Assembly: GCF_050320075.1 (NCBI RefSeq)
Contig: NZ_CP190018.1
DNA from: Escherichia coli
GTDB lineage: Bacteria > Pseudomonadota > Gammaproteobacteria > Enterobacterales > Enterobacteriaceae
DNA: 64,000 nucleotides
Direction: 5' to 3' (one strand)
In this document: piece by piece, positions 9,409 through 10,012 of the stretch
Layout: each line of letters starts with the position of its first letter
Position numbering within the stretch: position 1 is the stretch's first letter
Translations under genes and position numbers: made by a program
The notes under the pieces: generated by a model
The model's database searches: none
Told to the model about the DNA's origin: nothing
The model's input: the letters and a program-made list of their open reading frames with translations, nothing else

Positions 9409-9785
9409 GAAGCTGACCAGACAGTCGCCGCTTCGTCGTCGTCCTCTTCGGGGGAGACGGGCGGAGGGGAGGAAAGTCCGGGCTCCATAGGGCAGGGTGC
9501 CAGGTAACGCCTGGGGGGGAAACCCACGACCAGTGCAACAGAGAGCAAACCGCCGATGGCCCGCGCAAGCGGGATCAGGTAAGGGTGAAAGGGTGCGGTA
9601 AGAGCGCACCGCGCGGCTGGTAACAGTCCGTGGCACGGTAAACTCCACCCGGAGCAAGGCCAAATAGGGGTTCATAAGGTACGGCCCGTACTGAACCCGG
9701 GTAGGCTGCTTGAGCCAGTGAGCGATTGCTGGCCTAGATGAATGACTGTCCACGACAGAACCCGGCTTATCGGTCAGTTTCACCT
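9409..9785 (+). ncRNA. rnpB: RNase P RNA component (M1 RNA)
   Basis: 377-nt sequence starting GAAGCTGACCAGACAGTCGCCGCTTCGTCGTCGTCCTCTTCGGGGGAGACGGGCGGAGGGGAGGAAAGTCCGGGCTCCATAGGGCAGGGTGCC and ending ...CGGTCAGTTTCACCT, recognised as E. coli M1 RNA. Confidence 0.97.
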
Positions 9786-9794
9786 GATTTACGT

Positions 9795-9826
9795 AAAAAC
9801 CCGCTTCGGCGGGTTTTTGCTTTTGG
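9795..9826 (+). terminator. rnpB rho-independent terminator
   Basis: AAAAACCCGCTTCGGCGGGTTTTTGCTTTTGG: GC-rich hairpin with flanking A and T runs. Confidence 0.85.
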
Positions 9827-9906
9827 AGGGGCAGAAAGATGAATGACTGTCCACGACACTATACCCAAAAGAAAGCGGCTTATCGGTCAGTTTCACCTGG
9901 TTTAAC

Positions 9907-9946
9907 GAAAACCCGCCAGCGTAAACTGGCGGGTTTTTGCTTTTTG
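9907..9946 (+). terminator. Second terminator-like hairpin in the duplicated unit
   Basis: AAAACCCGCCAGCGTAAACTGGCGGGTTTTTGCTTTTTGG. Confidence 0.75.
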
Positions 9947-10012
9947 GAGCATAGTGTAAGATGAATAAATATCTACGGTATTAATAATAGACTTTGTAAG
10001 AAATTATTAAGT

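Follow-up and report, generated by a model that had tools for sequence, protein, structure and literature searches.

Tandem copies of the rnpB 3' end with successive terminator hairpins between rnpB and yhaC in Escherichia coli

In the E. coli DNA analysed here (64 kb of the garK-rnpB-yhaC-yhaB-tdc region, hereafter the window), the 3' end of rnpB, the gene for RNase P RNA, is repeated in tandem, and each of the two units carries a terminator hairpin (T1 and T2). Judging from its sequence, the array most likely acts as a set of tandem, partly bidirectional intrinsic terminators between the convergent genes rnpB and yhaC, with a copy number that varies through unequal recombination. The feature is already known and is common in E. 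coli, and the window holds its minimal form, the shortest with more than one unit.

Positions 9380-10400 of the window are 100% identical to strain CFSAN061763, and this segment is matched in 5425 of 5426 complete E. coli genomes. The class A RNase P RNA (M1 RNA) gene rnpB occupies 9409-9785 on the plus strand and matches the full RF00010 model (positions 1-367; 318.6 bits, E=1e-104); it is annotated at this locus in the identical strain CFSAN061763. A consensus scan placed a promoter-like site at 9373-9401 on the plus strand (GTGACA, 17 nt, TATACT; 10 of 12 matches), whose putative -10 hexamer would end 7 nt upstream of the RNA start at 9409. On the minus strand, yhaC (395 aa, 10013-11200) was assigned from the open reading frame list and from the YhaC family annotation in identical and related strains. 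It is convergent with rnpB, with its 3' end towards T2, and a Pfam search of yhaC returned no domain. In the open literature, we found no paper naming both rnpB and yhaC. Together with yhaB, yhaC forms an AT-rich block without Pfam domains (window 10001-12400; 30.6% GC over 10001-11000). Only pseudogene fragments of this block remain in strain 536, and it is missing from Salmonella, Klebsiella and the cryptic Escherichia clades. These properties suggest that the block is a horizontally acquired islet adjoining the array.

Unit 1 (9736-9836, plus strand, 101 nt) begins inside rnpB with the final 50 nt of the gene (9736-9785) and continues through a tail and terminator T1 to the spacer GGAGGGGCAGAA. 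Unit 2, the pseudo-unit (9837-9958, plus strand, 122 nt), abuts unit 1 with no DNA between them; in it, a pseudo copy of the rnpB 3' end, 62 nt long, is followed by a tail, T2 and a spacer. The earlier note on this DNA had described a tandem repeat of about 50 nt of the M1 RNA end with a second terminator, and the alignment and hairpins bear this out; its unit starts were each one base late (9736 and 9837 are correct), and unit 2 ends at 9958 rather than at 9950. In a global alignment of the two units, 91 of 95 ungapped columns match (96%) and 33 columns hold gaps. The score of 101 compares with -57 +/- 9.7 for 3000 shuffles (z=16), so the units are homologous and the second is not unrelated sequence. 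A repeat search recovered exact repeats of 22 nt at 9736/9837 and of 17 nt at 9808/9928, as well as a 57-nt repeat at 9745/9858 (79% ungapped). Tandem Repeats Finder reported no repeat for the array, presumably because of the large indels and the presence of just two copies.

The pseudo copy, which we call the pseudo-block (9837-9898, plus strand), was delimited by alignment. It carries a 12-nt insertion (9858-9869, ACTATACCCAAA) and a CC>AG change (9874-9875) in the copied 3' strand of helix P4. The differences between the units had been described as small indels. They are present but are not random decay; instead, they amount to a specific 12-nt insertion, the CC>AG change and a long-stem terminator allele. 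At 9959-9980 (plus strand), unit 2 is followed by the stub AGATGAATAAATATCTACGGTA, a degenerate start of a further unit (16 of 22 matches) that forms the junction with the AT-rich yhaC DNA. Just three positions on the plus strand of the 64-kb window match the unit start as well as the stub does (16/22).

Both hairpins have the sequence of an intrinsic terminator, a GC-rich stem-loop followed directly by a U-tract. T1 (9793-9820, plus strand) has a GC core at 9800-9813, an A/U-extended stem and a U-tract at 9814-9826, and folds at -20.7 kcal/mol (z=-3.7). T2 (9906-9939, plus strand), recognised from a terminator scan, an inverted repeat and its fold, is a long-stem hairpin of 14 pairs (8 G-C) with a U-tract at 9934-9947, and folds at -25.9 kcal/mol (z=-4.3). 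None of 200 shuffles was equally stable in either case, and each hairpin is followed by TTTTTGCTTTT. The terminator scan flagged T2 and missed T1, because part of the T1 U-tract was counted as stem; rnpB T1 has been used as a natural terminator (PMC3643576). By predicted folding energy, T2 would be the stronger of the two. Each hairpin lies between an A-tract and a T-tract. The minus strands fold at -13.9 kcal/mol, followed by UUUUUAC (T1), and at -24.7 kcal/mol, followed by UUUUCG (T2). With its A-tract upstream and T-tract downstream, T2 is potentially bidirectional. T2 is a different hairpin allele from T1, the long-stem allele CCCGCCAG...CTGGCGGG, and this allele forms T1 in E. albertii, E. 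whittamii, the cryptic clades and the displaced original gene end of strain ECC-1470. Long and short terminator alleles are both found in Salmonella.

We propose that unit 1 serves as the real gene end, where transcription would mostly stop at T1. The rnpB precursor is trimmed to the mature 3' end, here 9785. Unit 2 would be a non-functional pseudo copy, its P4 strand broken by the 12-nt insertion and two substitutions; because these changes fall in a strand of helix P4, it would be unable to serve as a gene end. The part of unit 2 that works is most likely T2. As a strong second terminator, T2 would catch read-through from the heavily transcribed rnpB, and the A-tract and T-tract on its flanks could let it end the convergent yhaC transcript as well. 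Copy number (0-8 extra units) would change by unequal homologous recombination or slippage between units. We infer termination in vivo, its bidirectionality and the recombination mechanism from these features. Tandem fail-safe intrinsic terminators are known after highly expressed stable-RNA genes, for example rrnB T1-T2. Like that pair, the array presents two successive GC-rich hairpins with U-tracts behind a strongly transcribed RNA gene. Unlike in rrnB, the second terminator in the window came with a duplicated gene end, and the extra units are polymorphic in number (0-8).

In 1983, Reed and Altman reportedly described in PNAS repeated sequences in the 3' flank of E. coli K-12 rnpB, and we take the window array to be this repeat. 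As such, its re-identification matters little. The window array lies at the same locus, directly 3' of rnpB and on the same strand, and its first unit overlaps the gene end. The unit content is also the same (copied rnpB 3' end, terminator and spacer), with homology over the whole length, a hairpin and T run in each unit, and the diagnostic insertion and CC>AG change. In K-12 MG1655 (L001), the rnpB end is followed by three further units: two full units of 113 nt and then a fourth unit with a decayed terminator. Beyond the fourth unit come a REP/BIME-like insert, a distal terminator remnant and the same stub as in the window; the stub ends the array in K-12, O157 and 536 too. Window unit 1 does not differ from that of K-12. 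Unit 2 aligns throughout with K-12 units 2-3 and differs in an 8-nt longer hairpin and in the distal spacer; its length of 122 nt, rather than 113 nt, is due to the long-stem terminator allele and this spacer. The window pseudo-block matches K-12 units 2-4. The alignment agrees with the earlier suggestion of a K-12-type repeat present in about two copies. K-12 has three extra units and the window one, and the REP/BIME insertion in the last K-12 unit has no equivalent in the window array.

The REP/BIME-like palindromic element after the last K-12 unit lies on the minus strand at L001 2200-2340. At the corresponding place in strain FORC_043, between the fifth unit and the stub (L004 2637-3617), there is an IS621 (IS110 family) transposase gene.

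We counted units across strains, as the earlier note had suggested. A BLAST search with unit 2 found matches at 1-9 places per genome in 5421 E. coli genomes, and a unit at least 95% identical to window unit 2 occurs in about 843. The pseudo-block query is specific to downstream units, and all of its 8525 copies, from 3894 of 5426 complete E. coli genomes, were at least 95% identical. Carrying genomes have 1-8 extra units (median 2), all chromosomal, and the remaining genomes have none. In these, 28% of the total (e.g. strain 536), the true gene end is followed by the stub, which means that the second terminator is dispensable. Within O157:H7, the pseudo-unit is present in some strains and absent from others, a variation that indicates recent and apparently recurrent loss of extra units. 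The array resembles a bacterial minisatellite or VNTR in its head-to-tail units of about 100-120 bp, in a copy number that varies between and within lineages, and in the concerted evolution of units within one genome. It differs from a VNTR in that its first unit is part of an essential gene and its later units carry a fixed diagnostic insertion conserved across genera. With its 0-8 extra units, the locus can confuse genome assembly, the annotation of rnpB and small-RNA searches.

The 12-nt insertion and the CC>AG change are common to all 8525 E. coli extra units. Both also occur in every downstream unit that we read from other E. coli, E. whittamii and the cryptic Escherichia clades, as well as in E. 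albertii (degenerate), two Citrobacter species, Klebsiella pneumoniae (two extra units), Salmonella Senftenberg (six extra units) and a Salmonella Kentucky fragment. Extra units were not found in Kluyvera, Kosakonia, one Enterobacter, or Salmonella arizonae, diarizonae and houtenae, and Klebsiella aerogenes has a stub only. Because the two changes are common to the units of E. coli, Salmonella, Citrobacter and Klebsiella, we regard unit 2 as an old, conserved pseudo-unit and not as a recent duplicate of unit 1. The duplication that gave rise to it would predate the split of Escherichia, Salmonella, Citrobacter and Klebsiella.

A recent strain-level duplication of unit 1, followed by a few random indels, would also yield adjacent units that are 96% identical over ungapped columns, and fresh duplicates of unit 1 do arise in E. 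coli. However, where those real duplicates occur (6 of 5426 genomes), they show 100% identity to unit 1 and no insertion. Moreover, the T2 allele differs from T1 and is the same allele that forms T1 elsewhere (E. albertii, E. whittamii, the cryptic clades and ECC-1470). The insertion and CC>AG change common to all E. coli pseudo-units and to several genera refute a recent origin, to which we give almost no credence. The insertion-less duplicates are 101 or 108 nt long (L045 1122-1324 and L046 1115-1331) and are evidently recent products of unequal crossover, indicating that unit-scale duplication is still going on. Their rarity is striking, with 6 genomes against 8525 insertion-bearing units. 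In the genomes compared, the tail, terminator and spacer of the pseudo-units resemble those of unit 1 of the same genome, as would be expected if units recombined.

In Citrobacter sp. Awk 4 (L015 5866-6100), about 150 nt of inserted DNA, containing a long imperfect palindrome (TTAGCTTCGGCTAACACCGTTAAC...GTTCTTAAGCTAACGGTGTTACCGC), separates a pseudo-unit from a second partial unit start. This insert may be a small mobile or structured element.

Conservation within the units is uneven. Comparison between genera gives identities of 94%, 93% and 97% for the three successive parts of the 62-nt pseudo-block, and identity outside it is 20% in the tail after CACCT, 73% in the hairpin and 44% in the U-tract and spacer. 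Gene conversion could keep the outer two parts of the pseudo-block similar to the true end of rnpB. The middle 19 nt are conserved though they have no counterpart in rnpB, suggesting that they are under constraint. A pure terminator array does not explain why these pseudo-specific bases are 93% identical while the tail and spacer are not.

One interpretation is that the pseudo-block, and especially its 19 pseudo-specific bases, is under purifying selection across Escherichia, Salmonella, Citrobacter and Klebsiella and has a function of its own. We put this forward tentatively, as an improbable reading. The pseudo-units would then function beyond termination, as a small RNA or as a protein-binding DNA site, a proposal that could coexist with termination and that we likewise think unlikely. 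Candidate functions may include a small RNA from read-through or encoded by the unit, decoy pairing like that of the P1/P2 strands of RNase P RNA, and a protein-binding site. In the small-RNA version, an A-rich Hfq-type motif (AAAAGAAAG) and the terminator might serve an RNA derived from read-through or from the unit itself. The contrast between the 19-nt block (93%) and the tail (20%) and spacer (44%) favours a function, since this block could not have been copied from rnpB. The prevalence of insertion-bearing units (8525, against insertion-less units in 6 genomes) points the same way. RNAalifold also predicts a 12-bp stem that pairs GAUGAAUGACUG with CGGUCAG..UUUCAC.CU, and a 4-bp inner stem made by the insertion and the AG change. 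However, the proposed stems show no compensatory changes: both sides vary in only 1 of 26 pairs, which lies in the terminator, and several variants disrupt the inner stem. Nor did a promoter scan find a sigma-70-like promoter for a unit, and an Rfam search at a permissive threshold returned just weak terminator-type matches and a partial RF00010 match, both of which count against a function. The long-range helix of window unit 2 is allele-specific, and 28% of E. coli genomes do without the units. Tandem termination remains our preferred reading of the array, and its one puzzling point is the conservation of the pseudo-block across genera beside neighbouring sequence that diverges freely. If the conservation of the 19 nt reflects function, the pseudo-block would be an unrecognised element coupled to the expression of RNase P RNA.

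The long-range helix arises because, in window unit 2, the insertion region (ACACUAUACCCAAA, 9856-9869) is nearly complementary to the distal spacer (UUUGGAGCAUAGUGU, 9941-9956), and the predicted pairing encloses T2. This helix (ACACUAU.CCCAAA / UUUGG..AUAGUGU) at first looked like covariation with E. whittamii. We rejected it as a conserved structure, as CACTAT units with the GGAGGGGCAGAA spacer (L042 and L043) show its allele-specificity.

We also considered that each unit encodes a small protein. In the window, an open reading frame of 41 aa runs on the plus strand from the ATG at 9839 to the TGA at 9962-9964, preceded by a Shine-Dalgarno-like GGAGG at 9825-9829, and its stop codon overlaps the ATG (9961-9963) that opens the stub. 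At the level of sequence alone, then, a ribosome-binding site and an intact frame are present. The frames translate cleanly, and unit lengths of 101, 113 and 122 nt, all 2 mod 3, keep the ATG...AGATGA register in E. coli. Gene callers have in some cases annotated a hypothetical protein, and the title of the 1983 report by Reed and Altman is said to mention open reading frames. In relatives, however, neither the frame nor the Shine-Dalgarno sequence is conserved, and we rejected the small frame for this reason. The Klebsiella frame is broken by a 1-nt deletion, the Salmonella units lack GGAGG, and their lengths of 108 or 116 nt lose the register. The observed variants are, by our reading, mostly non-synonymous, the frame crosses a terminator hairpin, and the sources name the product just 'hypothetical'. 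A protein product is thus very unlikely, and we retain the termination reading.

The 3' end of rnpB is, in addition, an integration hotspot. At least 34 of 5426 E. coli genomes carry a tyrosine-integrase islet immediately after rnpB, and four integrase forms can be told apart. One of two forms, about 78% identical in DNA, is found in 19 genomes; 15 further genomes match just the first ~70 nt of an islet, and the two of these that were inspected carry two more divergent forms. The islets are 8-10 kb long, and examples lie at L007 19651-29110, L008 19651-29260, L038 79-8200, L003/L006, L036 and L037. Those of ECC-1470 and CFSAN061761 are flagellin islets, with an integrase (in CFSAN061761 a 486-aa protein with a Phage_integrase domain), a YagK/YfjJ protein, a Hin-like recombinase, flagellin and a fliC repressor; another rnpB islet has a primase-helicase instead of the flagellin genes. 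According to Feng et al. in 2008, the flk flagellin islet reportedly inserts between rnpB and yhaC. In ECC-1470 this islet has been published as GI10 (PMC5422975). It is also published that flk is excised between direct repeats by its integrase Orf486 (PMC3378880).

The attL/attR junctions in L007, L008 and L038 define the crossover core of the islets, the direct repeat CTTATCGGTCAG, at 9766-9777 (plus strand) of the window. The core is unoccupied there, and a second copy lies in unit 2 (9879-9890). The direct repeats of the islets span 12-20 bp and consist of CTTATCGGTCAG with or without TTTCACCT. On integration, an islet swaps the last 8 nt of the ribozyme gene for its own copy, supplying as the new rnpB end either CTTCAACT, a perfect complement of the 5' end GAAGCUGACC, or TTTCACCT. 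The displaced original end is found at the far islet junction, and the usual pseudo-units come after it. Islets have landed repeatedly at the rnpB 3' end, replacing the terminal part of a ribozyme gene that is essential.

Integrative islands produce 3'-end duplications at tRNA and tmRNA genes, and the extra units might similarly be scars of integrative elements, that is, displaced rnpB 3' ends left behind by element decay. The window resembles those islands and the flk islet in that the rnpB 3' end is a real attachment site with CTTATCGGTCAG on both islet sides. The core is present in every pseudo-unit, the original gene end is displaced to the far junction when an islet brings a new one, and in other species some of the partial units at array ends stop at the core or just beyond it. 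The number of islets at this site (at least 34 of 5426 genomes), an Enterobacter roggenkampii record with the same left junction and the published excision of flk by its own integrase (PMC3378880) fit the scar interpretation as well. However, the units are 101-122 nt long and start 30 nt upstream of the core, whereas the islet repeats measure 12-20 bp, and the left part of a unit is unrelated to the islet arm. In shuffle tests, the islet arm at the far junction scored z values of only -0.3 to 1.1 against the pseudo-block or rnpB; as a control, two islet arms scored z=18 against each other. The window holds no islet and shows none of the marks of an attachment-site duplication (a repeat of core size, element DNA between the copies and left sequence derived from an arm).

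In the arrays of the window, K-12, Salmonella and Klebsiella, successive units are not separated by an integrase or by remnants of an element. The genes that follow the Klebsiella array, checked for mobile-element functions, are ordinary core genes. The three islets whose junctions we read entered unit 1 and not a pseudo-unit, and precise excision leaves no scar. BLAST searches and two IMG/VR pattern scans did not find the pseudo-block on mobile elements (phages, plasmids and IMG/VR contigs); the phage and plasmid matches were just host chromosomal fragments or mislabelled chromosomes. Decay of integrative elements is therefore a quite unlikely source of the units, and the rnpB end is a real hotspot without explaining the repeat, which we continue to read as a terminator array changed by recombination between units.

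A likeness of the islet arm to rnpB and the pseudo-block had been seen by eye and was rejected, as the shuffle tests gave z of about 1 or below. Just the 12 nt next to the core are similar, with 8 of 12 matches by hand count.

Several database records at this locus deserve mention. Two entries deposited as fragments of 'Salmonella phage S.Kent 1-2-1' (OR851195.1, L034, and OR851156.1) are Salmonella chromosomal rnpB-tdc DNA. In E. coli EH10-18-47, an IS3 element and distant chromosomal genes (yqiH onward) come after the islet, an arrangement that looks like an inversion. The Enterobacter roggenkampii record NZ_CP109732.1 has an islet-type left junction after rnpB, followed by phage tail genes (L033 8001-8500). 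It is 90.9 kb long and labelled a plasmid, and it carries the chromosomal genes diaA, rsmI, garD, garL, garR and rnpB; it is probably chromosomal DNA that was wrongly assigned and holds a prophage or islet at rnpB.
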